A stretch of DNA of 58,251 bases, taken from positions 1-58,251 of IMG/VR virus record IMGVR_UViG_3300044637_000534; one strand, written 5' to 3'. Positions 1 to 57,816 of this stretch are shown in pieces (the first letter of the stretch is position 1; each line of letters starts with the position of its first letter). The translations under genes and the position numbers were made by a program. This DNA is from a virus. Lineage: Duplodnaviria > Caudoviricetes. The notes under the pieces were generated by a model that ran no database searches, was not told where the DNA came from, and saw only the letters and a program-made list of their open reading frames with translations.

Positions 1-184
1 TGAAGAGGAACCAGCCGTCGCGTGTGTATGGGTTGCCGTCGTCGTCCGTGCCGTCGTTCTCTACTTCGAGAAGTAACTCGTCGCCTCGAACCCGCAGGCT
101 GAGACGCTCGCCCTGATCTTCAACGCAGTCGAAATCATCATCGAGCACGGGCTCACGAACGAATGAAATGAATGGGTCGTCCAT
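1..184 (-). CDS. Acidic hypothetical protein, 3'-truncated by window edge (full copy at 57577..57816)
   Basis: MDDPFISFVREPVLDDDFDC..., preceded by GAGGAG. Confidence 0.65.
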   Translation of the reverse strand, partial: MDDPFISFVREPVLDDDFDCVEDQGERLSLRVRGDELLLEVENDGTDDDGNPYTRDGWFLF

Positions 185-186
185 CG

Positions 187-360
187 TCACTCCTCCTCGA
201 ACCAATCGAACAACGCAGCAGCGCGCACTTCGGAGCGCAGCATACCGAGCGAGAGGATAGACACGAGGTCGTCGTACAATCCGCACAGCGAGACGGTGAA
301 GTAGATCAGTTGGTATCGAAATGTTGGCAGGTCATTGAAGCGAGGGATGAATGGTCGCAT
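187..360 (-). CDS. 57-aa hypothetical protein (not in ORF track)
   Basis: MRPFIPRFNDLPTFRYQLIYFTVSLCGLYDDLVSILSLGMLRSEVRAAALFDWFEEE; RBS GGAGAG; frame preserved in the divergent right-end copy. Confidence 0.75.
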   Translation of the reverse strand: MRPFIPRFNDLPTFRYQLIYFTVSLCGLYDDLVSILSLGMLRSEVRAAALFDWFEEE

Positions 361-374
361 GTTACTCTCCGTGG

Positions 375-773
375 TTACGCTGCGATGGTGTGATGGTGGA
401 ATGGTGTGTTGTCATTGGCATCGTCGATCGTCTGGCGCATCTCGCGCAGATCGAACGTCATGACCTCGCGATCGTCGACGGGGCGGAGCTTACTGCCGAA
501 ATAGAGTTGGTTCTTCTTCGTGAAAAACGGACGACCGAACCCGAGCAGGTCGAACAAACCATTCAACCGATCCTTCGTGGTCGGCGTCGGATAGCCGCAG
601 AAGGACACACTCAGGATGTTGTCATTGCGTGTCCCATCTTCGTTGACGCGGGCGAACTCTGCGATGGGATGGTAGTGCAGGAAGAGCGTTCTGCCGTCGG
701 TGTGAGAACGAGCGGCACGAGCGGGCACGCCTTTGATGAAGGCTGAACAGATCTTGCGTGTTTCCTTACGCAT
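375..773 (-). CDS. Conserved-looking phage early protein (GYPTPTTKDRLNGL motif)
   Basis: Start MRKETRK after GGGGAGTAAC; frame preserved in the right-end copy. Confidence 0.8.
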   Translation of the reverse strand: MRKETRKICSAFIKGVPARAARSHTDGRTLFLHYHPIAEFARVNEDGTRNDNILSVSFCGYPTPTTKDRLNGLFDLLGFGRPFFTKKNQLYFGSKLRPVDDREVMTFDLREMRQTIDDANDNTPFHHHTIAA

Positions 774-786
774 GGAAGTTACTCCC

Positions 787-1011
787 CTAGTAATTGATGG
801 ATGAAGGCATTGGGTCGGGTTGCGGGCCGCGAGATGAGAGCGCGGTTGCATACGCGATGGCAGTTGAACGCTGCGCGAAAGACTGGCGGCGCAGCACGCG
901 ATCGGTGCGGGTGTCAATGGCTGACACCCACCATCCGTTGAGACCGGCACGCACATTGACAAGGATGCCGTCGACCAGGCGCGTCCAGATTACTTCGCCA
1001 GTTACGCTCAT
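787..1011 (-). CDS. Hypothetical protein
   Basis: ATGA-coupled to upstream small ORF; fits operon tiling. Confidence 0.65.
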   Translation of the reverse strand: MSVTGEVIWTRLVDGILVNVRAGLNGWWVSAIDTRTDRVLRRQSFAQRSTAIAYATALSSRGPQPDPMPSSINY

Positions 1012-1070
1012 CGTGCGTACTCGATGGCGAGGTAGAGGAAGAAGGCGAGGATGATGAAGCCTTCACGCAT
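1008..1070 (-). CDS. 20-aa hydrophobic micropeptide MREGFIILAFFLYLAIEYAR
   Basis: Exactly fills the gap between neighbours with overlapping start/stop; AGAAAG upstream. Confidence 0.45.
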   Translation of the reverse strand: MREGFIILAFFLYLAIEYAR

Positions 1071-1230
1071 GGCGCTTTCTCCGGTTACGTTTCGGAGTAA
1101 CGGGCACGGGAATGAAGATCGGCATGGGTGCGGGGAACACGAGTTCGCCGAGGCGCTCGCACTGTTCCTTGAAGTATCGATCGGCGACGGACTTGACGTC
1201 GTAGCGTGTGTTGGTGTTGCGGCGGGACAT
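1063..1230 (-). CDS. Basic hypothetical protein
   Basis: Start MSRRNTN after AGGAGTAACC. Confidence 0.65.
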   Translation of the reverse strand: MSRRNTNTRYDVKSVADRYFKEQCERLGELVFPAPMPIFIPVPVTPKRNRRKRHA

Positions 1231-1247
1231 GGTGGTTACTCCTGTAG

Positions 1248-1457
1248 TTATTTGGTGGGCTCGATGGTGAATACGAACACGTCCTCGCCGCGCATTGCGG
1301 CGCCGTCGTAGTGGTGCGGGTGCTGGAGATCTTCCTCCCATGCGAACACTTCGCCCGGCACGAGCTTGATCGCTTCTTCCAGCGTCTCAGCAGTGCCGAT
1401 CGTGATGCGCGCGGGCACGTTACCTGCGTATGCCATTTCCTGAACAACAAACGTCAT
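1248..1457 (-). CDS. Hypothetical protein
   Basis: RBS GAGGAGAGTAACC-ATG. Confidence 0.75.
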   Translation of the reverse strand: MTFVVQEMAYAGNVPARITIGTAETLEEAIKLVPGEVFAWEEDLQHPHHYDGAAMRGEDVFVFTIEPTK

Positions 1458-1468
1458 GGTTACTCTCC

Positions 1469-1633
1469 TCAGTAAAAGATGCGGTACGAGAAATTGCAGT
1501 CGATCGTCGCGGCATCGTCGCCGGGACCGTCATAGCAACCGTAGTAAACGATGGTCGCTTTGCCCTCGAAGTACTCGTCCGTGAGATCGAGGAAGAAAGC
1601 ATTGGTCGTGAGAACGTCGAGGAAGCGGTTCAT
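1469..1633 (-). CDS. 54-aa hypothetical protein (not in ORF track)
   Basis: MNRFLDVLTTNAFFLDLTDEYFEGKATIVYYGCYDGPGDDAATIDCNFSYRIFY; RBS GGGAGTAACCC-ATG. Confidence 0.7.
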   Translation of the reverse strand: MNRFLDVLTTNAFFLDLTDEYFEGKATIVYYGCYDGPGDDAATIDCNFSYRIFY

Positions 1634-1648
1634 GGGTTACTCCCGGAG

Positions 1649-1816
1649 TTAGAGCGATGCGGGGTCGATGGGCGTGTCGGCGAGCACGACGGCGATCAAG
1701 CCTGCATCGCGCTTGGATGGCTTGAAGTGCACGAGCGCGTGCATCTTCGCCTCATAGAGAGACGATGCTTCAAACTCGATGCGGCGTGACTTGAAGAACG
1801 CAATATAGGTACGCAT
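1649..1816 (-). CDS. 55-aa hypothetical protein
   Basis: MRTYIAFFKSRRIEFEASSLYEAK...; RBS AGGAGTAACC. Confidence 0.75.
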   Translation of the reverse strand: MRTYIAFFKSRRIEFEASSLYEAKMHALVHFKPSKRDAGLIAVVLADTPIDPASL

Positions 1817-1892
1817 GGCGGTTACTCCTGAAGTTATGGGGGGACGATCGCGCGGGTGAGTGCGCGCGTTGTGATGGTGTGATGGTGGAAGG

Positions 1893-1913
1893 CGGGGGGC
1901 GCTTGGCCCCCCG
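1893..1913 (-). terminator. GC hairpin downstream of 1926..2585 (terminator or processing stem)
   Basis: CGGGGGGC-GCTTG-GCCCCCCG; weak U-tract. Confidence 0.45.
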
Positions 1914-1925
1914 TTACTGTGAGAG

Positions 1926-2585
1926 TTACGCGGCGACCCCGAGCGAGGCGAGATGCGCGCGGGCCTTGGCGATCTCTGCGGCGCGGGCGAGCGTGGCGAT
2001 CTGCGCCTCGAGTGCAGACTTGGCGGCAGTCGCGCCTTCCAGTGCGATCGGGGTGTCGCTCTCTTCGTTGAGCTTGATCGCTGCCTCGACTGCCTTGAGT
2101 GCAGCCTTGAGCTGCTGCTCGATGGTGCGGGCCTTGGCTTCATCCTTAGCCATTGCCGCCTCGATCTCGTCGTCAGTCAGCGCATAGTCGGGTGACTTGA
2201 GCTGATTGCGGACGACCTGCAGATAGGCGTTGACGGCAGACTTACGGTCGACCTGCATGTTACCATAGATAGTAACCGCGCGACCGATCACGTCGACGGC
2301 ATCGACGGTTGTGAGCGCGCCGAACTCGATCGTCTTCTTGATCTCGCTCTTAGTCTTCTTGACGCTATCGGTCGTGCGATCGTGCACCGACTTCTTGCCT
2401 TGTGCCTCAATGAACGTGTTGACGATCATCTCGGCATCGTCGGGCGAGACGACGCCATCGGCTGCAGCGGAGACCGTGAGGACGATCATCTTGGGCCAGG
2501 CATCACCGCCTGCAGCCTTGTCGCCTGCGAGCTTCTTCGAGGCGGAGAGATAGTCGGAGAGGCGGTTGTCGTTGCGGATGGTCAT
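1926..2585 (-). CDS. Ala-rich alpha-helical early protein, unknown function
   Basis: 219-aa ORF, strong GC3 codon bias, GGAG RBS. Confidence 0.85.
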   Translation of the reverse strand: MTIRNDNRLSDYLSASKKLAGDKAAGGDAWPKMIVLTVSAAADGVVSPDDAEMIVNTFIEAQGKKSVHDRTTDSVKKTKSEIKKTIEFGALTTVDAVDVIGRAVTIYGNMQVDRKSAVNAYLQVVRNQLKSPDYALTDDEIEAAMAKDEAKARTIEQQLKAALKAVEAAIKLNEESDTPIALEGATAAKSALEAQIATLARAAEIAKARAHLASLGVAA

Positions 2586-2700
2586 AGTGGTATCTCCATA
2601 GGGTTGGGACCGGCAGTCTTGCCGGGTGTGGTTGCAGTGTAGTTTCAGGGTGTGGGTTACTCTGGAAGTTACAGCAAAGTAACAAAGAGCTCGCGGGAGC

Positions 2701-2845
2701 TAATTCTAATTCTAAATGTTTTTTTTGAATGAACCTATAGAGGTGTGATGGTGTGATGGTTTTAGAATAAGGCATCACACGACCGGGGGGGTCGCGCGCG
2801 CGCGTGGGGGGTTATATTGTTTTTAGAATTAGAATTAGAATTAGA
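2701..2845. repeat. Inverted TTAGAA hexamer arrays flanking a (CG)n/G-run core; candidate replication origin
   Basis: TAATTCTAATTCTAAA at 2701-2716, TTTTAGAAT at 2760, (TTAGAA)x3+ at 2823-2845; AT-rich island. Confidence 0.6.
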
Positions 2846-2888
2846 TATAGAAGAGGCCCCATTGCGTGCGGGTAACACTCGCCCACCG

Positions 2889-3089
2889 TCAGAAGTGTTG
2901 GCGAAGAACACGGGCCATCGTCATGCCGGTCGGGATACGTTGAACCCTCACACCATCACACGATACCGGCGTGCGATCGTGTTCGATCGTGTAGAACGGC
3001 TTGGAATATTCCAGCGAGGCGAGCACGCGCGCCTGACGTTTGGCCTTCTCATATTTCGCTTGCAGGTTGCGGTTAACTTGTGAGCCCAT
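2889..3089 (-). CDS. Small basic hypothetical protein, first gene of leftward early operon
   Basis: 66 aa; AAAGGA RBS. Confidence 0.65.
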   Translation of the reverse strand: MGSQVNRNLQAKYEKAKRQARVLASLEYSKPFYTIEHDRTPVSCDGVRVQRIPTGMTMARVLRQHF

Positions 3090-3678
3090 GATGGTATCCT
3101 TTCGGTTACTTTGAGAGTTACAGGGTTAAATTGACAAACGGGAAAACAATTCTCCCGCGCAGGTCGCACTCCCGCGCGGGTTAAATGGTGTTATTCGGTT
3201 TAGGCGTTGAACCGAAAACCGTCCGGGGTATCGCTTGCCACCGGAGCGCCGCGCATCGTCGCATCGTCGTCGATGCTTTGCGCGGGAGCGATAGGCGCGG
3301 CTAATATCACTCGCGCTCGCTCACGTCCCCGATCGGCCCCTCGCGCTGTCGCGCGCCCCATGGCTCCCGGTTTTCGCGCGTCAGGTCCCCATGCGGTGCG
3401 CGGGTGCCGGGGTGCGATGGATCGCACGCTTGCGGCAATGGGCGCATGGGCGAGCGGGTGGAAAGCCCGCGACTGTTTCAGTAATTCCGTGGCACCGTCC
3501 TTTCGTTGGTGGGTTACACCATAGGGTCGGCGGTAACTCGGAAGTAACCGGACCCCCCACCCCGGAACGGACAGGGGGGGCGGGGGGAGGGGTGGCTCTT
3601 TTTTGGGTACCTTAAAAATATCCAGGACCTAAAAACCTTGATGTAACCTTCGTGATACTTCCGCTATACGCAGACATG

Positions 3679-3700
3679 AAAAAGGCCCCCGCAGGGGCCT
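3679..3700 (-). terminator. Rho-independent terminator
   Basis: AGGCCCC-CGCA-GGGGCCT preceded by an A-run on + (U-tract on -). Confidence 0.7.
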
Positions 3701-3750
3701 CAAACCAAAACACCATCACACCCTTGAACCCCACCACACCCCCGCTAAAC

Positions 3751-4006
3751 TCAGTGCACCAAAACTGCACCGGGTTCTTCGCAACCCATTGATGTTATGG
3801 TTGAAGTGGTCCCATGGGATCTGGGGTTAGCGTATGTCGACCCCCTGGTCGCAAGTCGCGGATAAATCACAAAAAATCGTTTGTTACCAATAAGATACCT
3901 TCGTCGAAGGAAGCGGGTTACATACGCTTGAGTTGACCTGCGGGAGGTCCTGATCCATCTTCAGTGCACCACCATCGCACCAGATCACAAGACACCTGGT
4001 GCAGTG
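3751..4006. other. Probable attP region
   Basis: Arm-type repeats TCAGTGCACCA at 3751-3761 and 3961-3971, ACTGCACC at 3764, inverted TGGTGCAGTG at 3997-4006; immediately upstream of integrase. Confidence 0.6.
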
Positions 4007-4036
4007 TAACCCACTGGAAACCCACGAAAACCACCC

Positions 4037-5089
4037 ATGGCCTCCATCTTCAAAGTCGCGTCAGGCAAGTGGCGCGTGCAGGTCCGTCGCAAGGGCCAGG
4101 CTCCCATCTCGGAGTATTTCACCTCCCACGCCGAAGCCGTCCGCTACGCGCGCGGGCTCGAAGTCGACTTCGATCGGCAGAAGCGCACCCCTGCCGGGGT
4201 GCGTACCACCTTCGCAACCGTGATCGACGCCTACACCAACAGCCTACGCCACAAGGTCGGCACGACCAAAGAGTGGAACCTTCAGATGCTGAAGGACAGG
4301 TTGGGGCATGTGCGGATCGACGAGCTGACCCAGGCGCGGGTGTCCGAGTTCCTCAAGCAGCGCGAGCGCGACGGGGCTGGACCCGTCACGAACATGCAGA
4401 CCTTTTCGTACCTTCGTACCGCACTGCGGTATGGCGGGGCGCACATCGAGGCGGGCGAGGCCATCGCCGAGGCGCTCACCCGGATGCAGCTCCTGTGGGA
4501 CGCGATGATGCACACCAAGCAGATCGCCCACTCCAAGCACCGCGACCGGCGTCCGACGGAGGAGGAGTTGGGCCATTTGATGGACCACTTCGACAGCCGC
4601 CCCCGGTCCAAGATGCCCATGACGGACATCATGCTCTTCGCGATCTGCACCGCGATGCGGCAGGGCGAGATCCTGCGCATCCGGTGGGAGGACTTCGACG
4701 CAGAGAAGCGCTTGATATTGGTCAGGGGGAGAAAAGACCCAACGCAAGCTGGTGGGCGCGACCAGAGCGTGCCCCTCTTGCGCGGTCATGTTCGGGTGGC
4801 CAACAAAGCGCAGGACCCGGTCGAAATCATGCTGCGTCAAATCAGCGCTAGACGCAGGTCAGGAGTTATTTTTCCGCATAGCAAGCCGACGGTCGTTAAC
4901 GCCTGGATACACGCGACCGATACCCTGAGAATAAATGACCTCACCTTCCATGACCTACGTCACGATGGGGTATCGAGGATGTTTGAAGCGGGTTATGATA
5001 TTCCGCAGGTCGCTGCTGTGTCCGGGCACAAAAGCTGGAAGAACCTCCAGCGCTATACAAATTTGCGACCGGAAAAGGTGCAGCGTTGA
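4037..5089 (+). CDS. int: Tyrosine recombinase / phage integrase
   Basis: N-terminal arm-binding GKWRVQVRRKG; catalytic R (TAMRQGE), K, HDLRH, SGH, Y (RYT). Confidence 0.95.
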   Translation: MASIFKVASGKWRVQVRRKGQAPISEYFTSHAEAVRYARGLEVDFDRQKRTPAGVRTTFATVIDAYTNSLRHKVGTTKEWNLQMLKDRLGHVRIDELTQARVSEFLKQRERDGAGPVTNMQTFSYLRTALRYGGAHIEAGEAIAEALTRMQLLWDAMMHTKQIAHSKHRDRRPTEEELGHLMDHFDSRPRSKMPMTDIMLFAICTAMRQGEILRIRWEDFDAEKRLILVRGRKDPTQAGGRDQSVPLLRGHVRVANKAQDPVEIMLRQISARRRSGVIFPHSKPTVVNAWIHATDTLRINDLTFHDLRHDGVSRMFEAGYDIPQVAAVSGHKSWKNLQRYTNLRPEKVQR

Positions 5090-5173
5090 AGTATGGCCTT
5101 TTACGGTCGAAAATGGTCTAGTTGACGCTCCCCGCGTCAGATGCATTTTCCACCATATCAACACTGAAGTGGG

Positions 5174-5410
5174 GTGGAGATGCTCGACGTGGAAACAGCG
5201 CTGTCTTCAACTTTGCGAAGCGAGCTGCAGATCTTTTCCGAGGATGAATTAGCGCACGTTCTGGTCATAAAATCCCAGACGCTGGCGACGTGGCGGGCCG
5301 AGAGTAGAGGTCCAGACTACGTCAAGCTGGGTAAAAGTATTTTCTATCGCAAGCAGGATGTCGTAACCTGGATCAACGAGAGTGTAGTGTTGACCAGGCG
5401 GGCGACTTGA
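5174..5410 (+). CDS. Excisionase/AlpA-like HTH protein
   Basis: TLATWR...GPDYVKLGKSIFYRKQDVVTWI pattern; follows int. Confidence 0.8.
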   Translation: MEMLDVETALSSTLRSELQIFSEDELAHVLVIKSQTLATWRAESRGPDYVKLGKSIFYRKQDVVTWINESVVLTRRAT

Positions 5411-5619
5411 GTTCGGAAGTCATTACCATCGAAGTAACCGAGTGGGACCAGATCGAAGCGTTGGAGAGGTGCATCTATAGCCTCACCAACGCGATGGAGA
5501 GCTGCGGAGACGAGGAGCTCGAGGGCCTGTTCCAGCACGACATTGCGTGTTTGCTTCTCCTGCGTGAGGAGCTCAAGGACGCGGTCGACTGCTACACAGA
5601 GCCGTCGCGCCCCAACTAG
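5407..5619 (+). CDS. Acidic hypothetical protein
   Basis: TTGA-coupled to the xis-like gene; ends at the terL stop. Confidence 0.55.
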   Translation: MSSEVITIEVTEWDQIEALERCIYSLTNAMESCGDEELEGLFQHDIACLLLLREELKDAVDCYTEPSRPN

Positions 5620-7495: not shown

Positions 7496-7592
7496 TTACA
7501 CTCCCGATACTGGGATCAATAGTTGTCAAGCGGGGGAAACATACTGTATTTAAGGTAGGTTCGTCGAGCTGGCGAACTCGCGGGACCATTTC

Positions 7593-11029: not shown

Positions 11030-11036
11030 GGCTTCC

Positions 11037-47426: not shown

Positions 47427-47437
47427 GGGTGGTTCCG

Positions 47438-48148: not shown

Positions 48149-48250
48149 AGTCAAGGGAGGAAACGCCCAAGGACTGGCCCTCGAACAAGAAGAAGATAAA
48201 TCCGGTTTTCCGCCATTGCAAGGGTTACAAGGAAGTTAAACCCCTATTGG

Positions 48251-50119: not shown

Positions 50120-50153
50120 CGTAACTCCAAGGTTACTTCAAGAAGTTGTGGTG

Positions 50154-50264
50154 TTGACAGATTAAGGCACAATATCTATCTACTGCACTAGCCACGGCGG
50201 TGGCGCTCCTGGGTGGGAGTTAATGGGCGGCGAGGTTGGTGGTCCTCGCCGCCCAATTTGTTTT
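50154..50264 (+). ncRNA. Candidate small RNA with own sigma70-like promoter
   Basis: TTGACA-N17-TATCTA, two short hairpins, then 12-bp stem plus TTTGTTTT. Confidence 0.4.
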
Positions 50265-50938: not shown

Positions 50939-51129
50939 ATGTTACTCCTGAAGTAATTGGTGGAAGGAAGTGTGGGGATTGCCAGGTTTCACGGTGTTGG
51001 ACGTTCGTTCCTAAACGGGGGCACCGAACCTAACCTTGTTGTCGCCTTCAGACCGTGCGGCCTATGAACACCGCACGCTGTCACGCTCACCCGACCCCAC
51101 TGGCGGTCGTGGGAAAGGAGGCTCCCCCG

Positions 51130-52446
51130 TCAGGATTTCTTGATGGGACACTCGACGACGTCGCCGAAGGGATACTTCTGAGCGTTCTTCGAGATGTCGC
51201 CCCACAGCACCGGATAGGCGGGCGCTGCGGATGGAAACGAGCCGTCGCCGTCGGTCAGATAGACGAGAGCATCGGGCGTGATGTGATGCTCGGCGAGATA
51301 GTCGAACACCGGCACGAACGATGTGCCGCCCCAACCAGGCACAGGCTTGCAGCGCAGAGCGTGCAGGTCGCCAGCGTCCTCGACCTCATCGACGCGATGA
51401 ACCTTGGCGTCACACCAGACAACCATGAGGCGCTTGGGGCGAACGTCATCGAGGATGCCGGAGAGCTCGGCGAAGAAGCGGTCGATGATGGTGGGGTCCA
51501 TGGCGATGGAGCCAGACGTGTCGATGCCGACGACGACCGTGCCAGCGGCGTGACCGGAGCGACCGGGTGCATAGACCGGATCGTCGCGCGTAATCATGCG
51601 GCGATCGGGGCGGCGCCAATCGTAGCCACCGGCACCGACCTTGCGGGCGAAGAAGGCTTCGATCTTGTCGGTCCAGGGAACCTCGGGCTCGAGGATGTCG
51701 CCCAAGAACTTCTCGAGTGCGGCGGGCAGCTTGCCCTGAGCCTTGGCAGCGGCAGCACCGGCAGCAACTGCCTGCTTCCACTCGATGTCGTTGCGCTGAG
51801 ACTGAGCATCGTCAGGGCTGTTACCCTGAGAGTTACCGGGAGGCAGATGCTGGTCGAAGCCCTCGCCTCGCTCCTTGCCACTGCCGCCGCCACCACCTTG
51901 CTCGTCGTTGTACACCTTGCGATAGGCGTCGATGGCGCTGTCGTTGCCGTTGACGAGCTTAGGGTCGTGCAGCCAGGCAGTGTTGAATTGGCCGACCTTG
52001 GCCTCGATGAGGCAGTCGTTGATGACCAGGTCGGTCGCCACGTTCATGGTCTTGGGCTGATACTTGAGCTTGGTGCCGTCGGCGTAGCGGATCTCGCCAC
52101 GCTTGTTGAAGACGTGCATCTGTCCGCAGTGATCCCAGATGCCGTGCATAACCTCGTGCGCGATGATGAAGATGCGCTCGGCGAGCGAGTGCTTGAAGAA
52201 CGTGTCGGGGTTGAGGATGAGAGCGCAGCCGTCGGTGGCGGCGATCGGCACGTCCTTGGAGAACAGTGCGATGTGCTCGGAACCGTGCGGGTTCATCATG
52301 GTGTAGAGCACATGGGAGAAGGCGGGGCAGTTCCACAGGAACGCAGCGCGCGTCTCGGTCCAGAGCCTGAGTTGCTGGCCGGTCAGCTCGCACGGGGTGA
52401 ATGTGCCGCGCTTGTCTTCGGTCTCGTACTTAGCCAATGCTGTCAT
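51130..52446 (-). CDS. HExxH metallopeptidase-like plus vWA domain protein (DUF2201-like)
   Basis: AATDG, AHEVMH, NVATDLVIN; vWA DTSGS MIDAS, GGTSF, YLTDG. Confidence 0.88.
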   Translation of the reverse strand: MTALAKYETEDKRGTFTPCELTGQQLRLWTETRAAFLWNCPAFSHVLYTMMNPHGSEHIALFSKDVPIAATDGCALILNPDTFFKHSLAERIFIIAHEVMHGIWDHCGQMHVFNKRGEIRYADGTKLKYQPKTMNVATDLVINDCLIEAKVGQFNTAWLHDPKLVNGNDSAIDAYRKVYNDEQGGGGGSGKERGEGFDQHLPPGNSQGNSPDDAQSQRNDIEWKQAVAAGAAAAKAQGKLPAALEKFLGDILEPEVPWTDKIEAFFARKVGAGGYDWRRPDRRMITRDDPVYAPGRSGHAAGTVVVGIDTSGSIAMDPTIIDRFFAELSGILDDVRPKRLMVVWCDAKVHRVDEVEDAGDLHALRCKPVPGWGGTSFVPVFDYLAEHHITPDALVYLTDGDGSFPSAAPAYPVLWGDISKNAQKYPFGDVVECPIKKS

Positions 52447-52451
52447 GGTGG

Positions 52452-52769
52452 TTACTCCTCGTCAGTAACTTCTGCGTAGATGTCGATGCCCTCGTCGCCG
52501 TCGAGCGGATCGAAGGCGGACACGGCGATCATGGGTTTGTGTTCGTCGGAGATGAGCGATGCCGCAGCGAGCAGGCCCTGAGCAGAGCGGGCCGCAGCCT
52601 TGCGGACGATGTTAAACTTCTCGGGATCTTTGTAACGAACCTTGAGTTCGATGGTGACTGTCTTCTGCATAGAGTAGCCTCCTAGTTCGGCCATGTCGGC
52701 CAGGTTGTTGATGTTGAAGATGCGCCGCCCGTTCACGAATGTGGGCGGTCCCCAGTAATCCTTCCCCAT
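52452..52769 (-). CDS. Hypothetical protein (alternative start 52670)
   Basis: Tiles operon; AGGAGG before internal ATG. Confidence 0.65.
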   Translation of the reverse strand: MGKDYWGPPTFVNGRRIFNINNLADMAELGGYSMQKTVTIELKVRYKDPEKFNIVRKAAARSAQGLLAAASLISDEHKPMIAVSAFDPLDGDEGIDIYAEVTDEE

Positions 52770-52770
52770 G

Positions 52771-53247
52771 TTACTTCGATGGTAACCGGAGAGCGTTGCG
52801 AAGAGTGGGATCAGAGAGCGCGCGTTCTTTCCAGCTCTCGAAGATCTTCACACCTTCCTCGCCGTTGAAGCGGTACTCGGTGTACTTAGACTTCTTGGTG
52901 AACTCGACGACTGGAATGTCCTGCTTGTCGTGGACATTCCAGCGAGGGATTTGTGGCTTGGCAACGAGGCGCAGCGGGGCGTGCAAAGCCTGGAGGAACG
53001 TGACGTTCGGCACTTCGATCCAGGCGTTGAGCGTGCCGCATCGGTACGGCATGAACGGGCGACCCAACTCCTTGGCGATCTGCCGTGCGAACACGACCAT
53101 GCCGTTGTTGGTCATGTACTCGGAGTGCCGCTGGAAGTGCATGGTGTTGTTCATGATCTCGATAGTGACGGAGCGAAGATCATTGGACAGCGTCAGATAT
53201 GTTGGTGGTAAGAGCGCGTTGATCTCACGCTCGGAAACGTGCTGCAT
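52771..53247 (-). CDS. Hypothetical protein
   Basis: AGGAGTAACC RBS. Confidence 0.75.
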   Translation of the reverse strand: MQHVSEREINALLPPTYLTLSNDLRSVTIEIMNNTMHFQRHSEYMTNNGMVVFARQIAKELGRPFMPYRCGTLNAWIEVPNVTFLQALHAPLRLVAKPQIPRWNVHDKQDIPVVEFTKKSKYTEYRFNGEEGVKIFESWKERALSDPTLRNALRLPSK

Positions 53248-53296
53248 CGGTTACTCCTAATAGTGATGGTGTAATGGTGTTGTGGTGTAATGGGGT

Positions 53297-53330
53297 GGCC
53301 CGCGCCACGAGGGGGGATCAGGCGCGGGCC
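53297..53330. terminator. GC hairpin downstream of AAA gene
   Basis: GGCCCGCGCC...GGCGCGGGCC; no clear U-tract. Confidence 0.4.
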
Positions 53331-53363
53331 GTCTCAATCGCAGGGGGAGATGCGCGTCTGCGA

Positions 53364-54443
53364 TTAAGCTGCGTGCAGCATGTTGACCAACGTCGCGTTG
53401 CGCGTGGCCCACTGGCTGAAGGCGTCAGTCATGACGATGGCCGGGATGCGCTGGCACACGGACTTGGCGAACGTGGCAGCGAACTCCTTGGGGAAGCGAT
53501 CGACATACTGGAGGACCGGCTTGGCCGTCTTGGCATCGACGCGGGCAGACAGCTCGTAGATGGCGAGCATACGCGCGTCAGGCTTGACCGGGATCTTGAT
53601 GTTGTCGGGATCGGCGATGATCTCGGCGAACTTGGGCAGCTCGTGACCCAGGCGGATGTGGGCGATGAGTTGCTGAGCGGACGCCTCGCCGATCATACCG
53701 GAGGCGAGCTCGATGGTGTTGCCGTCGGTCGGCAGATCACCCGATGGTGTGATGGACCGCAGGATGCGAGACAGCATGACCAGCGAGCGAGGCGTGCAGA
53801 ACGGACCCTGCTTCTCGGGCACCTTGCCCTCGAACACGACCTGCGGGTTGGATGCAGCGAACGCAACGAAGAGCGGCTCGACGCCGTTCTTGTTGGCCCA
53901 ATTCTCCCACGAGGTTACGTCGGGAGTAATCTCGACCTGCACACGACGGTTGATGACGAAATCGAACGACTTGGTGACACCGGAGCGATCCTGGCTGCGG
54001 TTGGATGCAGCGATGACCGTCCAGCCACGCGGCAGCTCCCACGGGCCAAGGCGGCGGTTGAGCAGCAGCTCGGCAGAGGCGCGCTTGACGTCAGCCTCGC
54101 CCTGACCGAACTCGTCGAGGAAGAGGATGCCGCGCTCGAATTCGTGCACGGGGCGACCGTCACGGGTGAGCATCCACGGCGGCATGGTGTAGGACGAGAC
54201 AGACAGGGTCGATGCACCGAAGGCGCGCTTCTCGGGGACCATGTAGCCCATGAGATCTGACGGCGTCTGCGTAGCGAGGAAGAGCGTCTGGAAGCCCCAC
54301 TCGAAGCCGTCGCGCTGGCTCATGAGTGCGCGCATCTGCTCGACCCACTCGGACTTGCCAAGGCCGGGCGATGACTGGAGCTCGATGGAGACGCCGCTGT
54401 CGAGAAGACCGGGCGCAATGGTGGTGAGATTATCGAAGTTCAT
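53364..54443 (-). CDS. MoxR-like AAA+ ATPase
   Basis: SPGLGKS Walker A, ILFLDEF Walker B, AASN sensor 1, NRR, TPRS sensor 2. Confidence 0.88.
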   Translation of the reverse strand: MNFDNLTTIAPGLLDSGVSIELQSSPGLGKSEWVEQMRALMSQRDGFEWGFQTLFLATQTPSDLMGYMVPEKRAFGASTLSVSSYTMPPWMLTRDGRPVHEFERGILFLDEFGQGEADVKRASAELLLNRRLGPWELPRGWTVIAASNRSQDRSGVTKSFDFVINRRVQVEITPDVTSWENWANKNGVEPLFVAFAASNPQVVFEGKVPEKQGPFCTPRSLVMLSRILRSITPSGDLPTDGNTIELASGMIGEASAQQLIAHIRLGHELPKFAEIIADPDNIKIPVKPDARMLAIYELSARVDAKTAKPVLQYVDRFPKEFAATFAKSVCQRIPAIVMTDAFSQWATRNATLVNMLHAA

Positions 54444-54478
54444 GGCGGTGGTTTCCTGTTATGGTGTGATGGTGGGAC

Positions 54479-54709
54479 TTACGCTTGGAAGTAATCGAAA
54501 TCGTTGGTGGCGATCTCTATTACTGTATCTCCGGTATTCCAGACCCGCTGCTGTTCGTGCTTTGGCAGCAGATCAAACAATTCCCGGTTGATGAGCAGAA
54601 CATTATGCTTTTTGTCCAGTAATGATACCACATTGTAACTGGGCATTTTACTGGGATCAACGTAGCGAAATATGCGGTTCGGCCCATTATGGGGTGTGAC
54701 GTTGCTCAA
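54479..54709 (-). CDS. Hypothetical protein, AT-richer than neighbours
   Basis: 76-aa ORF with a TTG start. Confidence 0.55.
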   Translation of the reverse strand: MSNVTPHNGPNRIFRYVDPSKMPSYNVVSLLDKKHNVLLINRELFDLLPKHEQQRVWNTGDTVIEIATNDFDYFQA

Positions 54710-54998
54710 GGATGGTCCTCGCTTCCTCTATTACTGACTGGAGACGGCGCATTACGGACTGACGCATTGCATCGTCACCGTTGATGACGTTGAGATCAGC
54801 GTGCGCGATCGACGCCATTAGGCTCTGCAGCTCGGTTACTTCCGCAGTAGCTGGCAGACTTTTGTATGCGGCACGGAAAGCGTTGTGCGCCTTGGGCGAG
54901 AACTGATCCTCGACCATGTTGTCGCGCGCCATGAGGTTGGCCGCAGTGCGAGCGTGATAGATCGGCTCGCGTTCATCGCGTTGCAGCTCGTACCTCAT
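54687..54998 (-). CDS. Hypothetical protein
   Basis: ATGA-coupled. Confidence 0.65.
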   Translation of the reverse strand: MRYELQRDEREPIYHARTAANLMARDNMVEDQFSPKAHNAFRAAYKSLPATAEVTELQSLMASIAHADLNVINGDDAMRQSVMRRLQSVIEEARTILEQRHTP

Positions 54999-55405
54999 GC
55001 CGCAGCCTCGGGTGTGTTGTCCTGCGCGGGTGCCTCGGTGATGACCGGGCGTCCCTTGGGCGCGTACTTCTTGGCGATCTCGGCAGCGCTCGCCTGCAGG
55101 TCAGCTTCCATCTGCGCGATGTTGACGGCGTTGTTACCGGTGCCACGCACAGCGCTGAACTGTCCGGCAAACGCAGAATAGTTAATGAGGTCGATCCAGG
55201 TGTCGCTCTTCGTCGGGCTCTCGACGGAGCGTGCGAGCTTCGTTGCGATGTGGAAGATGCACACCTCGAATGGCGAGACGTTACGATTGAGAAGTAACGA
55301 CGCCATGTTGGCGATGCGCTCGAAGCAAGGCTCGACGGGGCCATACTCCTGGCCACGCTCGCCAAGGATGCGGGCAGACGCAGAGATATAATCAGTGTGG
55401 TGCAT
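54995..55405 (-). CDS. DUF6378-like phage protein
   Basis: ERGQEYG...FERIA...KLAR...DTWIDLINYSA. Confidence 0.8.
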   Translation of the reverse strand: MHHTDYISASARILGERGQEYGPVEPCFERIANMASLLLNRNVSPFEVCIFHIATKLARSVESPTKSDTWIDLINYSAFAGQFSAVRGTGNNAVNIAQMEADLQASAAEIAKKYAPKGRPVITEAPAQDNTPEAAA

Positions 55406-55473
55406 GGAATACTCCTGTTGGGATTTATGTTGGCGGGGTCGCCACAGTTACTTGAGTAAGTAACAAGGTCGTC

Positions 55474-55908
55474 TCAGGTGCGGATCTGTCTCAAAAAATC
55501 CTGAGCACGCTGACGAGCTGCATCATCTTGGTGAATGAGCAGGTCTTTAATAATGTCAGCCGCAGCCTGTAGCTGGATGCGTAGTTCTTTGGTCTTATGC
55601 TCGAAGGGAGGGACCGTTTGTTTATGATCGGTTACTTCCGAAGGTACCCCCATCAGAGACAGGTCGATCAGGCGCTGCATCTTCTCTTGGAAACTTGTTG
55701 GTGCTTCCTCGGGAGACTTGGACGTCAGATCCTCGAGCTGCATTTCGAAGGCGGCAGCGATGGCTCGCAGGACCTTTGGACCTGCGGGTTGCTTGCCGAC
55801 TTCGATGCGTTGGACTGTTGCGTGATTGATGTATGCGCGCTTGGCCAGCTCATGTTGAGACCAGCCATGAATTACGCGCATTTGTCTGATCTTCGCGCCA
55901 ATACCCAT
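55474..55908 (-). CDS. XRE-family HTH transcriptional regulator
   Basis: IGAKIRQMR...WSQHELAKRA.I...VQRIEVG...LRAIAAAF. Confidence 0.85.
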   Translation of the reverse strand: MGIGAKIRQMRVIHGWSQHELAKRAYINHATVQRIEVGKQPAGPKVLRAIAAAFEMQLEDLTSKSPEEAPTSFQEKMQRLIDLSLMGVPSEVTDHKQTVPPFEHKTKELRIQLQAAADIIKDLLIHQDDAARQRAQDFLRQIRT

Positions 55909-55919
55909 GGGCAGTAATT

Positions 55920-55941
55920 TGTATAGTAAACTCGCTATACA
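55920..55941. promoter_or_regulatory. Palindromic operator upstream of XRE gene
   Basis: TGTATAG-N8-CTATACA in an AT-rich gap. Confidence 0.55.
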
Positions 55942-55946
55942 TTCAA

Positions 55947-56204
55947 TTACTGCGGCGTCCTGGTCGTGCTGTCAGCGGCGATCTTGGCCATAATAGCCAT
56001 GTCCATCTGCCGCATGAACTCTTCACGAGTGAGCCCGCCTGCGATCAGTTTACCTGCGAGTAACCCGCAGATGATGAGCGCGGCGACCCCAACATCGGCG
56101 TCGTGCTCTGCGACCATATCTGGGAGCTCCTCGACGATGAGGCCAGCAATGTGTGCAGAGTGAGTGAACTTCTCGAGTTGATCTTCGTCAATGATGGTCG
56201 TCAT
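55947..56204 (-). CDS. Hypothetical protein
   Basis: MTTIIDEDQ start, ATGA-coupled to the Cys-rich peptide gene. Confidence 0.7.
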   Translation of the reverse strand: MTTIIDEDQLEKFTHSAHIAGLIVEELPDMVAEHDADVGVAALIICGLLAGKLIAGGLTREEFMRQMDMAIMAKIAADSTTRTPQ

Positions 56205-56353
56205 GAGCACACCTCTGAGCAGTTGTTGTTCTTGTCGCAGCACACAGAGCAGACGATCACCTTGCCGTTGACGACGTAGGTGTGGGTGCTGCACGCAGCC
56301 CAGGCCGCAGTAGCGGTGAGCAGCGCGATGATGGTGATGGCCAGTCTCTTCAT
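56201..56353 (-). CDS. Secreted 6-Cys microprotein (not in ORF track)
   Basis: MKRLAITIIALLTATAAWA signal peptide plus ACSTHTYVVNGKVIVCSVCCDKNNNCSEVCS; GGAGGTAACC RBS. Confidence 0.8.
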   Translation of the reverse strand: MKRLAITIIALLTATAAWAACSTHTYVVNGKVIVCSVCCDKNNNCSEVCS

Positions 56354-56355
56354 GG

Positions 56356-56709
56356 TTACCTCCAGAAAGTAAGGATGGACTTCTTCACGGGTGCCGGGCG
56401 CAGGCCCAGCAGCGTCTCGCGGGCGTTGACAGATTGTTCGCGTGTCTCGACCTCGAGTGCTTTGATCGACAGCTCGTTACGCTGACGAGTAACTTCCTCG
56501 CGCTCCTGCACGAGCTTGCCGTAGTCATCGACCAGGCGGCGGGACGCAGCAGCGACAGCGCGCGAGAGCGTGGACTGCTGAGCGGGCGTGAGTGCGCTGA
56601 TATCGGCGTGCTGCAGCCGCTCGACGAGCTGCATGAGCGTGTCGTTGTCGGCGTCATCTTTGCCGAACACGGCGTCGGGGTGCTTATTGATCTTCGCGTT
56701 GAACGTCAT
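56356..56709 (-). CDS. Coiled-coil hypothetical protein
   Basis: AGGAGTAACCC RBS. Confidence 0.75.
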   Translation of the reverse strand: MTFNAKINKHPDAVFGKDDADNDTLMQLVERLQHADISALTPAQQSTLSRAVAAASRRLVDDYGKLVQEREEVTRQRNELSIKALEVETREQSVNARETLLGLRPAPVKKSILTFWR

Positions 56710-56712
56710 GGG

Positions 56713-56997
56713 TTACTCCTGAGAGTTGGGGAGGTAGACTTTGGTGACGTGGACGTCGGTGGTGTATGATTGCAGGCCGGAGAGTTCGCACCCGCCTATG
56801 TGTCGGGCTTCCTCTTCGCTCGAGGCGAGCACCATCACCTCGTGCTCAGAAGTGATGGTGCCCTGCACGAAGTAGTATCGCTTGCCGGGTACGCTGGATT
56901 GAAATGGGTCCTCGAACTCGTCGAGCAGGATGATGCCGTCTTTGTCGTCGCAGTCGCATGGTGTTGCGATGCCGCAGGTGGTGCAGATGTCGATCAT
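56713..56997 (-). CDS. Hypothetical protein with N-terminal Cys cluster
   Basis: CTTCG...CDC; GGAGAGTAAC RBS. Confidence 0.7.
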   Translation of the reverse strand: MIDICTTCGIATPCDCDDKDGIILLDEFEDPFQSSVPGKRYYFVQGTITSEHEVMVLASSEEEARHIGGCELSGLQSYTTDVHVTKVYLPNSQE

Positions 56998-57026
56998 TCG
57001 TTACTCTCCATGGTTACTGTTAGGCG

Positions 57027-57383
57027 TCACGACACTCTTCGTATCGGTATCGAAGAGAGCTCAGTCAGCGCGTTGTTCGCGCACGCTGATGCACGCTCTG
57101 CGGCGTTCTTTATGGCGTGCAGTCTGTCAAACATACTGCTGCCAAACGAGCCGCTATTATCCATGAGGCACTGCACGATGTAATTCACTTGGTTATTAGT
57201 GTCGTAAATTTGCGAGGCGATGAGGTTGAGATCATTCACTCGCACCAGCTTGAGAAACGGATAATTGAGGCTGACGAAGCGAGAGAGTGCGTCGACGACG
57301 TCTCTATTGTCGTAGCCGCCGAGTAGTAAAAGTAAGTGCGCTTCGATGACTTCGGGTTGTGATGGTGTTGGTTCGTCTGTCAT
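57027..57383 (-). CDS. Hypothetical protein
   Basis: ATGA-coupled; AT-richer. Confidence 0.65.
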   Translation of the reverse strand: MTDEPTPSQPEVIEAHLLLLLGGYDNRDVVDALSRFVSLNYPFLKLVRVNDLNLIASQIYDTNNQVNYIVQCLMDNSGSFGSSMFDRLHAIKNAAERASACANNALTELSSIPIRRVS

Positions 57384-57574
57384 TGGTCATCCCGGTAACG
57401 CTTGCCAGTAATCTTGCGGGCATCGTCGACGAACATCTTCCACCATTGGTAGAGATCGTCGTAGCTGGGCGGGCACCATGTACTAATGAGCGTCTCGCCG
57501 ACGTTGGGCATCTGCGCCAGGCGCTCGACGAGGATGATGTAGTTGGTGATGTGCGGCTTGAGTTCAGCGTCCAT
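57380..57574 (-). CDS. Hypothetical protein
   Basis: GGAGAGTAAC RBS. Confidence 0.7.
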   Translation of the reverse strand: MDAELKPHITNYIILVERLAQMPNVGETLISTWCPPSYDDLYQWWKMFVDDARKITGKRYRDDQ

Positions 57575-57576
57575 CG

Positions 57577-57816
57577 TTACTCTCCGAAGTGACGGTTGAG
57601 AAAATCACGCAGGGTGCGGATCTCTTCTTTGCTGAAGAGGAACCAGCCGTCGCGTGTGTATGGGTTGCCGTCGTCGTCCGTGCCGTCGTTCTCTACTTCG
57701 AGAAGTAACTCGTCGCCTCGAACCCGCAGGCTAAGACGCTCGCCCTGATCTTCAACGCAGTCGAAATCATCATCGAGCACGGGCTCACGAACGAATGAAA
57801 TGAATGGGTCGTTCAT
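57577..57816 (-). CDS. Acidic hypothetical protein
   Basis: MNDPFISFVREPV...; GAGGAG RBS. Confidence 0.7.
   Translation of the reverse strand: MNDPFISFVREPVLDDDFDCVEDQGERLSLRVRGDELLLEVENDGTDDDGNPYTRDGWFLFSKEEIRTLRDFLNRHFGE

Follow-up and report, generated by a model that had tools for sequence, protein, structure and literature searches.

The phage genome analysed here (the window; 58,251 nt, Caudoviricetes) carries about 70 copies of a degenerate dyad motif, GTTACT-N5/6-AGTAAC, that are densest and evenly spaced in the early and replication genes and recur in lineage-specific versions in related phages. We lean towards reading them as sites on duplex DNA that are recognized by a phage-encoded protein. 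A preliminary description of the window had reported a GTWAC-N7-GTWAC motif written into genes and intergenic gaps alike. The six perfect GTTAC-N7-GTAAC copies that it listed (21053, 32105, 41996, 46972, 48639 and 52770) are all in place, against an expectation of 0.02 that bears out its estimate of far fewer than one by chance, and none of 100 dinucleotide shuffles of the window reached six; GTWAC-N7-GTWAC has 11 matches, with 0.04 expected. Also present are the N6, N8 and N9 versions (14557, 1084, 19900, 45086, 55447, 56476, 52451 and 55280) and the direct-repeat versions (1913, 2656, which with 2668 forms a triple, 3105, 3533, 37100 and 51820). The GC content, put at about 62% by eye, is 60.3%. 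Sites are here defined as having at least 10 of 12 matches to the two hexamers GTTACT and AGTAAC, a definition that recovered all 13 near-matches listed earlier, offset within 1-2 nt. The spacer-length peak is sharp, with 31 sites at five and 29-30 at six nucleotides between the hexamers, seven at four, four at seven, two each at two and three, and one each at eight and nine; 30 Markov-1 simulations gave 0.2-0.7 sites per spacer length, and the enrichment is 50- to 100-fold. The inner flanks belong to the motif: GTTACT accounts for 40 of the 81 GTTAC words in the window and AGTAAC for 34 of the 67 GTAAC words. Since positions 57633-58251 are repeated at 1-619 with 94% identity, sites 60 and 361 duplicate sites 57692 and 57993. 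The sites are distributed as follows.

Early small genes, leftward arm, 1..3600 (- strand), 15 sites: 60, 361, 778, 989, 1084, 1235, 1459, 1636, 1821, 1913, 2259, 2656, 2668, 3105, 3533
Structural/late arm, 3700..36999 (+ strand), 15 sites: 5422, 11659, 13719, 14557, 16942, 19900, 21053, 25417, 25967, 27276, 29315, 32105, 33565, 34367, 35853
Replication/early arm, 37000..58251 (- strand), 40 sites: 37100 (in a + strand gene), 37392, 38119, 38777, 40026, 40677, 41190, 41996, 42836, 43247, 44066, 44556, 45086, 45638, 46358, 46585, 46972, 47590, 48250, 48639, 49364, 49535, 50941, 51820, 52451, 52770, 53250, 53914, 54835, 55280, 55447, 55631, 56049, 56355, 56476, 57000, 57013, 57576, 57692, 57993

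The early/replication arm (37000-58251 plus 1-3600; 24.9 kb) thus holds 55 sites and the structural arm (33 kb) 15, corresponding to 2.2 and 0.45 sites per kb, a roughly fivefold difference, and there is no site at 5438-11659. In the former arm the mean gap is 457 bp with a coefficient of variation (CV) of 0.64, more even than uniform placement would give (P = 0.0002) or than is obtained when intragenic sites are randomly re-placed within their own genes (P = 0.008). The corresponding spacing in the related Rhizobium phage RHph_TM27A (host Rhizobium phaseoli) has a CV of 0.48, an evenness matched by none of 20,000 random sets. The earlier notion of a lattice hence fits the early arm, its extension to the whole chromosome less so, given the difference in density. 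Even spacing of about 0.5 kb and a density that peaks in the replication arm could also suggest sites at which the DUF927 primase-helicase is loaded or starts priming, or hot spots at which the nuclease/SNF2 recombination module acts. The module itself, made up of DUF927, SNF2, a PD-(D/E)XK nuclease and a weak match to VRR-NUC, is conserved throughout the superfamily, including lineages that carry other palindromes. We know, however, of no primase or helicase that reads a 17-bp dyad, the arm bias tracks transcription units, and differences in the motif are, as far as seen, not mirrored in the conserved module proteins, so that we assign this explanation a low probability.

More than half of the sites (41 of 70) lie within genes and have no start codon after them. 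Codon-preserving shuffles of the genes (n = 100) retained 4.97 ± 1.96 intragenic sites (maximum 10), compared to 42 in the real sequence, and at a cut-off of at least 11 of 12 matches the numbers are 0.38 and 24. With only about five of 42 sites left after synonymous-codon shuffling, selection acts on the DNA and not on the protein, as had been proposed from the Val-Thr codons at four of the sites, listed below.

21053..21069, GTTACT-N5-AGTAAC, 12/12, in the endolysin gene (Phage_lysozyme, E = 1.2e-38), phase 0, VTREVT
32105..32121, 12/12, in the gene of a 2560-aa virion protein, phase 0, VTEEVT
41996..42012, 12/12, in gene 41857-42834 (- strand), phase 0, VTGEVT; homologous place kept in relatives L084/L085
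48639..48655, 12/12, in PolA (- strand), phase 0, VTCGVT; 11/12 at the homologous place in L085

All four earlier readings of these peptides were correct and in phase 0, and the codons are uncommon as described: GTT and GTA make up 13.5% and 5.6% of Val codons and ACT 11.8% of Thr codons, and 19 of the 21 in-frame GTT-ACT dicodons of the window fall inside motif sites. The endolysin and PolA labels were verified, whereas the protein of gene 41857-42834, previously called SSB-like, has no Pfam match.

Other sites lie at or near gene junctions, among them the following, which are given together with one site in a convergent gene overlap.

37100..37116, convergent overlap of genes 36901-37167 (+ strand) and 37084-37347 (- strand); sole intragenic site also at the homologous place in TM27A
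46972..46988, perfect GTTAC-N7-GTAAC (11/12 when scored on the hexamers), covering the ribosome-binding site (RBS) used by gene 46586-46969
52451..52469, 12/12, 7-nt inner spacer, containing the GAGGAG Shine-Dalgarno of gene 51130-52446, 4 nt before the ATG
52770..52786, perfect GTTAC-N7-GTAAC, adjoining the ATG of ORF 52452-52769; L083, L084 and L085 retain it
55447..55464, 12/12, 6-nt inner spacer, starting 9 nt past the HTH_3 stop codon

Fifteen of the 70 sites have GGAG in the spacer and end 0-4 nt upstream of a start codon (17 if 52770 and 56355, which precede starts missed by the gene caller, are included). Most sites at the 1..3600 junctions combine the upstream TAA stop in the left half with the Shine-Dalgarno in the spacer, the right half mostly lying 0-4 nt before the ATG. 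Such start-adjacent sites would also fit a translational role, in which the mRNA arms GUUACU and AGUAAC pair, so that the loop and the 3' arm contain the Shine-Dalgarno, for translational coupling or repression or as the target of an RNA-binding protein or RNase. Such an element would resemble the start-associated sequences of Cluster K mycobacteriophages or the operators of RegA, the T4 translational repressor. Hairpins can naturally have loops of varying length, the arms in TM27A and L175 extend to CCTC..GAGG, resembling an anti-SD/SD pair, and Shine-Dalgarno-like words are found 34 times on the sense strand and 14 times on the antisense strand. Among 152 exact-core sites the outer base shows an asymmetry relative to transcription (A in 45 on the 5' side and 14 on the 3' side), but the purine pattern of the spacer is symmetric (488 versus 468). 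The stem would have only 5-6 pairs, mostly A·U; sense-strand mismatches at 213 sites show no G·U excess (47 G·U versus 63 A·C); position 3 of the half-site presents 15 A·A and 5 T·T combinations among the 70 sites without a single compensated A·T, amounting to 20 uncompensated and no compensated swaps at the central stem position. There is thus no sign of RNA or single-stranded DNA pairing at the sites. Together with the intragenic sites that no start codon follows, and an even spacing inside long genes that has no obvious meaning for RNA, this makes an RNA-level element improbable, if somewhat less so than the replication sites considered above. It is very unlikely that the motif represents cassette-boundary sequences that promote recombinational shuffling of small genes and whose intragenic copies are a by-product: many small early genes are indeed bracketed by near-identical 17-bp junctions, and an inserted gene in Corndog is flanked by repeats of such length (excerpts of PMC4351075), but the intragenic copies are upheld by codon choice and placed so as to even out the spacing, and the one strain-level gene deletion observed (45184-45410) is not bounded by sites, the nearest being 45086 and 45638.

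The window phage is uncultured and comes from lake water; some of its relatives are cultured Rhizobium phages. The motif is kept across the clade, with both half-sites changing symmetrically. TM27A contains 68 sites of GTTACC-N5/6-GGTAAC, compared to 4-10 in ten simulations, and metagenomic relatives carry TTAC[C/T] dyads: GTTACT..AGTAAC in L083 and L085 (the latter near-identical to L084) and TTACC dyads in L172-L175, with an 8-nt spacer in all 23 sites of L175. Inner flank and spacer hence go by lineage (T with 7 or 8 in the window, C with 7 in L172, C with mostly 8 in TM27A and C with only 8 in L175), and the change from T..A to C..G affects both arms. The AC/GT of the GTWAC half-sites is nearly invariant, and the half-sites are retained while the spacers drift. 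Individual positions are less stable: in a relative with 78% PolA identity about half of the intragenic sites are still in place, in one with 47% almost none. L085 retains 10 of 21 intragenic sites at homologous positions and L083 8 of 18, although only 50% of third codon positions are identical. Relatives more distant by PolA have their own, unrelated palindromes. The common TTAC..GTAA core in phages of 47-62% GC could be taken to indicate sites for a host DNA-binding protein, such as an OmpR-family regulator, serving its recruitment or titration, and GTnAC-like half-sites are typical for several bacterial winged-helix regulators. The lineage-specific flanks and spacer preferences, and the quite different palindromes of distant relatives, weaken the earlier suggestion of host-regulator titration and are consistent with a reader co-evolving with its phage; sites for a host protein, whether for recruitment or titration, we deem quite improbable. 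A link to lysogeny, also raised previously, is weakened because TM27A carries the motif and has no integrase match in a tblastn search with the window gene set, including the window integrase, and because no prophage relatives were found among species-representative genomes.

For a phage-encoded protein reading the sites on duplex DNA, one gene stands out as a possible, still tentative, candidate.

47566..47910 (- strand), P0001, 114 aa, N-terminal helix plus OmpR/PhoB-type winged helix, no receiver domain

The gene lies just downstream of PolA, and its 3' end itself contains a motif site (47590-47607). A profile built from P0001 and ten homologues matched PhoB-family proteins in the PDB (WalR, SaeR and PhoB DNA-binding domains; best E = 1e-4). 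Its AF2 model (pLDDT 76) shows three helices and a beta-hairpin wing and was aligned by Foldseek to the SaeR DNA-binding domain (2.3 Å over 75 columns; best E-value 0.009), and the match to Pfam Trans_reg_C falls short of the threshold (E = 0.012; 16.1 bits versus a cut-off of 26.2). In an hmmsearch of 20,565 ORFs from all loci examined, the family was detected only in the window, L083, L084, L085, L093, L172-L175 and TM27A (L001, where the orthologue is EVB29_062), ten rows in all; every one of these loci carries the TTAC dyad, and the distant lineages with other palindromes have no detectable homologue. Of the five candidate readers named earlier, 47566 is the sole one supported by distribution: the HTH_3 gene at 55474 occurs only in the close relatives L083/L085, and the HTH_17 gene at 45184-45410 is deleted in strain variants that otherwise keep the rest. 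The co-occurrence of P0001 and motif may reflect only the shared ancestry of one clade, and there is no clear co-variation of protein and site, as lineages with T and with C inner flanks share almost the same recognition helix, KVAIHRLR. Furthermore, the usual targets of OmpR/PhoB domains are direct repeats about 10-11 bp apart, whereas the half-site centres here are 12-13 bp apart with dyad symmetry, and near-equal use of two spacer lengths is unusual for a rigid dimer.

We found no published account of the motif in this exact form, in line with the preliminary description, yet this kind of feature has been described; as far as the excerpts of the cited reports extend, it is closest to the repeats of Cluster O, A and K mycobacteriophages. 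Cluster O phages carry a 17-bp dyad repeat, 5'-TGTTCGGNNNCCGAACA (Cresawn et al. 2015, PMC4351075), that likewise occurs in more than 30 copies denser in the non-structural arm, has no clear orientation and belongs to phages not obviously temperate. About one third of these repeats are within coding regions, compared to more than half in the window, and they are found in unrelated phages and hosts, with a different sequence, invariant arms and a fixed 3-bp spacer; the window sites have degenerate half-sites, spacers of 7 or 8 (6-9), even spacing and a candidate reader, and many lie exactly on an RBS. Cluster A stoperators (L5 gp71 type) resemble the window array in their many operator-like sites genome-wide, often in short intergenic gaps, and in lineage-specific variants suggesting co-evolution with a phage protein; they are 13 bp long, asymmetric, oriented with transcription and bound by the monomeric immunity repressor of a temperate phage, as excerpted from PMC9283540, PMC6550527 and PMC4351075. 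The window sites, in contrast, are dyads, lysogeny does not extend across the clade and the model involves no gp71-like repressor. The Cluster K start-associated sequence (SAS) precedes starts of non-structural genes by 0-7 nt and takes in the Shine-Dalgarno and in some cases the preceding stop codon, and ESAS is an inverted repeat with variable spacer and subcluster-specific consensus; SAS is, in the excerpts, asymmetric, almost always start-associated (15 of 70 sites here) and absent from coding sequence, and its authors found little support for RNA hairpins in SAS/ESAS (Pope et al. 2011, PMC3203893). KorB-OB arrays of IncP plasmid RK2 also consist of dispersed palindromes bound by one element-encoded protein, with long-range silencing (McLean et al. 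2025, PMC11790492, in part). The candidate reader of the window is an OmpR/PhoB-type winged helix, and none of 40 window proteins scanned against Pfam has a ParB/KorB-type domain.

Protein binding, the identity and dimer state of the protein and the consequence of binding are what we infer to be most likely. The array would comprise double-stranded DNA sites, each formed by two pseudo-palindromic GTWAC half-sites arranged as a dyad with 7 or 8 bp between them, for a phage-encoded protein co-evolving with them, possibly P0001 acting as a dimer. Sites would be placed where they are cheapest, at early stop/start junctions enclosing a Shine-Dalgarno and at rare Val-Thr codons in long genes, and selection would maintain their number and roughly even spacing, about one every 450-650 bp along the early/replication arm and fewer in the structural arm, rather than each position. 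The effect of stoperators on transcription provides our working model for the outcome, provisionally adopted by analogy. Transcriptional silencing, the most likely effect though held with low confidence, would then amount to a global damping or shut-off of early/replication-arm transcription through roadblock or promoter occlusion, and may operate either in a prophage or at the early-to-late switch.

GTWAC half-sites recur in pairs throughout the window, and every position assigned to them in the preliminary description was correct. The perfect arrangement GTTAC-N7-GTAAC is found 6 times (0.02 expected) and the degenerate arrangement GTWAC-N7-GTWAC 11 times (0.04 expected), and the spacing between paired half-sites peaks solely at 6-9 nt. 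GTTAC is followed by GTAAC with spacers of 6, 7, 8 and 9 nt in 2, 6, 6 and 2 instances, respectively, and by a second GTTAC at 7 nt (4 instances) and 8 nt (5 instances). The core of the motif is, however, wider than first reported: TACT-N5-AGTA is present 15 times and TACT-N6-AGTA 12 times, against at most 0.2 in simulations. Sites were scored over the 12 arm positions of the extended dyad GTTACT..AGTAAC, and inner spacers of 4, 5, 6 and 7 nt returned 7, 31, 30 and 4 matches at a threshold of at least 10 of 12 positions, compared with 1-2 matches for each neighbouring spacer and approximately 0.5 per spacer in simulations. Merging overlapping matches yielded the set of 70 sites analyzed here (inner spacers of 4, 5, 6 and 7 nt in 6, 31, 29 and 4 cases). 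Only 6 of these match the dyad at all 12 positions; positions 4-5 of the half-sites (AC/GT) are near-invariant (69 and 68 of 70) and positions 1, 3 and 6 are variable.

The window is a complete contig of 58,251 bp with a GC content of 60.3%, and its closest named relatives are the Rhizobium phages RHph_TM27A/B, TM29 and TM3_14A, with around 70% nucleotide identity from portal to capsid. The window recurs in lake and freshwater metagenomes: the sequencing runs listed for it all supply contigs of that kind, and no RNA run is among them. Its genes are laid out as follows.

Gene layout of the window
About 4.0-37.2 kb, + strand: integrase, portal, capsid, fibres, endolysin and a 2560-aa protein
5616-7495, - strand: terminase pair
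58.2 down to 37.1 kb, then 3.5 to 0 kb, - strand: early and replication genes, in the order small early genes, AAA, DUF2201, PolA, dCMP deaminase, PD-(D/E)XK nuclease, a weak VRR-NUC match, SNF2 helicase and DUF927 primase-helicase

The two ends of the window (1-619 and 57633-58251) are direct repeats with 94% identity (31 mismatches and 6 gaps), and represent either a diverged terminal repeat, paralogous early genes or a circular assembly that ran on past its origin into the sequence of a strain variant. A tyrosine integrase (4037-5089; Pfam E=1.2e-21) is encoded in the interval from the early region to the terminase. Using the window gene set as tblastn query, no match to this integrase or to the HTH_3 protein was obtained in RHph_TM27A (hereafter TM27A), in whose record the label 'putative integrase' is placed on the homologue of the DUF927 primase-helicase. 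A second dispersed word, CACCATCACA(CCATCAC), is located on the - strand at 398, 1879, 1887, 2753, 54474, 57367 and 58030, often in tandem and 5' of early leftward genes. The segment 2690-2860, adjoining a triple half-site at 2656-2683, is AT-rich and non-coding and contains TTCTAA/TAGAAT units that are tandemly repeated and inverted relative to one another; no hexamer of the genome is more over-represented than TAGAAT, and the segment may be an origin or early control region. Directly after the PolA stop, a GC-rich hairpin with a T-run (48060-48250) precedes a 52-aa hydrophobic ORF and the predicted winged-helix gene described below, and is likely to be a terminator dividing transcription units. 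A link of the 2560-aa protein to N4-type virion RNA polymerases, raised against the background of the N4 hairpin-promoter geometry, was rejected: phmmer against PDB returned nothing (best E=2) and there was no Pfam match.

According to our own rough gene calls, 41 of the 70 sites fall inside genes, 15 end 0-4 nt 5' of a start codon, 4 lie 5-25 nt 5' of one and 10 are elsewhere; two further sites of the 70 (52770 and 56355) also end 0-4 nt before a start if ORFs that were missed or shortened by the gene caller are counted. At the junctions between small early genes, the left half often includes the TAA with which the preceding gene terminates, GGAG is in the spacer, and the right half reaches the ATG. 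A promoter reading of the sites was rejected, because they overlap ribosome-binding sites or fall in coding sequence, and transcripts begun at them would be devoid of a ribosome-binding site. The nick-site consensus of phage tf and phiKMV suggested nicking as another function; this idea was discarded because a dyad would yield double-strand breaks.

Selection at these sites acts on nucleotides. Intragenic sites are predominantly in phase 0 (GTT ACT ... GTA ACn), which requires the minor codons GTT (13.5%), GTA (5.6%) and ACT (11.8%), and of the 21 GTT-ACT dicodons in frame, 19 belong to motif sites. In the codon-preserving shuffle proposed in the preliminary description, 42 intragenic sites were observed against 4.97 ± 1.96 (maximum 10) in 100 within-gene synonymous shuffles; at a threshold of at least 11 of 12 matches, the same procedure gave 24 observed sites against 0.38. 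The earlier suggestion that selection operates on the DNA rather than on the protein is thus borne out by the shuffle, the minor codons and the dicodon counts. Among strain variants from four runs, the 40 of 476 variant places that were listed (37458-41322) included none in the 72 half-site positions of that stretch; with just 0.7 expected there, this absence carries no weight.

The sites are unevenly shared between the two arms of the genome, with 55 in the early/replication arm (37000-58251 and 1-3600) and 15 in the structural/late arm (3700-36999), or 2.2 versus 0.45 per kb. Within the early/replication arm they are spaced more regularly than chance would dictate: the mean gap is 457 bp and its coefficient of variation (CV) 0.64, versus 0.98 for uniform random placement (P=0.0002). 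When the 27 intragenic sites were re-placed at random in their own genes, the CV rose to 0.80 (P=0.008 for CV; P=0.006 for nearest-neighbour distance). The corresponding arm of TM27A holds 44 sites with a CV of 0.48, a regularity attained by none of 20,000 random sets, and site density in this phage is again higher in the early than in the structural region (1.57 versus 0.73 per kb).

TM27A proteins share merely 30-70% identity with those of the window, and its genome carries 20 instances of GTTAC-N8-GTAAC and 8 of the N7 form, amounting to 68 sites on the 12-position scale versus 4-10 in simulations. The TM27A consensus is GTTACC(T)..(A)GGTAAC; the inner flank has therefore been altered from T..A to C..G in both arms. 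IMG/VR contigs with at least 64% capsid identity mostly harbor TTAC[C/T] inverted repeats, and those at 52-58% do not. Three metagenomic loci with PolA 77-78% identical to that of the window and a GC content of 53% (L083-L085) present the window's own version of the motif. Of the intragenic window sites that could be compared, L085 has 10 of 21 in the homologous position, L083 has 8 of 18 and another relative (L010) has 2 of 5, against a background identity of 50% at third codon positions. At the distance of TM27A, site-by-site conservation fails, with only 1 of 16 intragenic sites in common; individual sites are thus gained and lost, whereas the total is maintained. It appears to be the spacing of sites, rather than their exact position, that is under selection.

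Counts of TTAC..GTAA in four other loci (L128, L143, L149 and L168) are weak and look like chance. Relatives with PolA at 41-43% identity bear iterated palindromes of their own, one per lineage, mostly among the small genes 5' of PolA; in L101 the palindrome is also intragenic, at intervals of about 1 kb.

Iterated palindromes in loci with more distant PolA
L097, 58-9899: CTAACA-N-TGTTAG, 19 in 10 kb
L101, 523-16884: GTTAGC-N6-GCTAAC, 15 copies, two within PolA
L118, 429-9482: GTTAGGGA-N-TCCCTAAC
L145, 208-12572: GTTAGTG-N3-CACTAAC
L130, 105-8505: TTCGGGCA-NN-TGCCCGAA

Dyad symmetry could reflect recognition of duplex DNA or pairing within a single strand. Across five genomes or loci, with 213 sites in total, mismatched arm positions on the transcribed strand comprise 47 G·U and 63 A·C combinations, without wobble excess. 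At the central position 3 of the half-site, A·A occurs in 15 of the 70 window sites, T·T in 5 and compensated A·T in none, so that all 20 changes there are uncompensated. Pairing maintained through compensatory or wobble changes, as in a functional RNA hairpin, was therefore not seen. The pyrimidine-then-purine pattern of the spacer is symmetric (488 versus 468 purines in 152 exact-core sites). These sequence patterns argue for recognition of GTWAC half-sites in duplex DNA, as opposed to pairing in RNA or single-stranded DNA. Some asymmetry persists: among the 152 sites, A occupies the outer position on the 5' side 45 times, versus 14 on the opposite side, and Shine-Dalgarno-like words number 34 on the sense and 14 on the antisense strand. 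It can be explained by coding and ribosome-binding constraints, but the sites may also have a role at the level of the transcript.

The candidate reader of the sites is P0001, a predicted winged-helix protein of 114 aa encoded directly 3' of PolA (47566-47910, - strand), with only one N-terminal helix ahead of its DNA-binding domain and no N-terminal response-regulator receiver domain; its orthologue in TM27A is EVB29_062 (34663-34977 of that record). A profile of P0001 and 10 homologues matched PDB entries of the PhoB family (E=1e-4), followed by the DNA-binding domains of WalR, YycF, SaeR, PhoB and VicR; the Pfam Trans_reg_C match fell under the cut-off (E=0.012). The AF2 model (pLDDT 76.3) comprises an N-terminal helix, a three-helix core (32-43, 49-55 and 62-76), a beta-hairpin wing (80-90) and a C-terminal helix, and its Foldseek matches include the winged-helix proteins MarR, ArsR and SaeR, with an E-value of 0.009 for the best and an rmsd of 2.3 Å to the SaeR DNA-binding domain. 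The modelled fold is that of a winged helix. In an hmmsearch of 20,565 ORFs from all loci compared, the P0001 family was confined to the window, TM27A and eight further loci (L083, L084, L085, L093 and L172-L175); each of these P0001-family loci presents the TTAC dyad, and the gene retains its position after PolA in L175. We infer from this matching distribution that P0001 is a candidate for reading the sites; the association may simply reflect common descent. T-type and C-type lineages hardly differ in their recognition helix, and no clear co-variation of protein and site was seen. Among species-representative genomes searched for prophages, none encodes the P0001 family, and a search of such genomes with the capsid protein returned four MAG contigs only, two of them of about 57 kb, and no prophage relatives.

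Other DNA-binding candidates fit less well than P0001. The HTH_3 protein (55474-55908) is shared with L083/L085 only, and an RHH-like ORF (37084-37347) has a match in L085 only. Strain variants from two lake metagenome runs (X7 and X11) lack exactly 45184-45410 (227 bp), most of the HTH_17 gene, in a clean deletion that skips from 45183 to 45411. A ParB/KorB-type reader was rejected, since a Pfam scan of 40 window proteins revealed no domain of this kind; the product of 41857-42834 shows CxxC motifs and ends in an acidic tail, but nothing typical of ParB.

No relevant published report was found on the motif or its phages. The nearest description is that of the 17-bp dyad repeat of Cluster O phages, present in 34 copies in Corndog, one third of them intragenic, denser at the right end and of unknown function (PMC4351075). 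Both motifs exceed 30 dyad-symmetric copies genome-wide, part of them intragenic (41 of 70 in the window), and are denser in the non-structural arm (55 versus 15 in the window); however, Cluster O arms are invariant and their spacer fixed, whereas window spacers span 4-7 nt and only 6 of 70 sites match at 12 of 12 positions. Cluster A stoperators likewise consist of many dispersed copies of a short operator-like word (70 sites in the window) and have a regulatory logic in common with it, but they are 13 bp long, asymmetric and oriented with transcription, unlike the GTWAC dyad with its weak outer-flank asymmetry, and are tied to the immunity repressor of temperate phages; the window encodes an integrase and an HTH_3 protein, and tblastn matched neither in TM27A. 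The start-associated sequences of Cluster K (SAS/ESAS) resemble the start-associated subset of sites and also involve lineage-specific inverted repeats (PMC3203893); they sit a few nt from starts and contain a Shine-Dalgarno sequence. By our rough gene calls, 15 of 70 window sites end 0-4 nt ahead of a start and 41 of 70 are intragenic. The KorB-OB system has a ParB/KorB-type protein (PMC11790492), none of which was detected among the 40 window proteins scanned against Pfam.

Taken together, the reading with most support is that the sites form a putative lattice on the DNA to which a protein would bind. The preliminary description had advanced such a lattice, and its interpretation is partly supported; the reader and the function are inferred. 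Dispersed palindromes have been described in phages several times, and no symmetric one is known to have an identified reader or function. What is added here is quantitative proof that sites are kept up through synonymous codon choice, together with a small, concrete candidate reader whose distribution matches that of the motif. The motif is worth testing because the clade has cultured, non-pathogenic members: the RHph_TM27A group of Rhizobium phages would allow direct experiments on both binding and function. Tentatively, and with the odds rather against it, a receiver-less winged-helix dimer of the OmpR/PhoB type might read evenly spaced dyads, about one per 0.5 kb and kept by codon choice; across the genome the array would then work as a switch or as scaffolding, a phage 'chromatin' of sorts that would silence or organise the early/replication arm. 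This would be an instance of a wider rule by which, in a large group of PolA-encoding phages of about 55-62 kb, every lineage tiles its genome with a palindrome specific to it and encodes a matching reader. That more distant relatives have lineage-specific palindromes hints at such a design being general in these phages.
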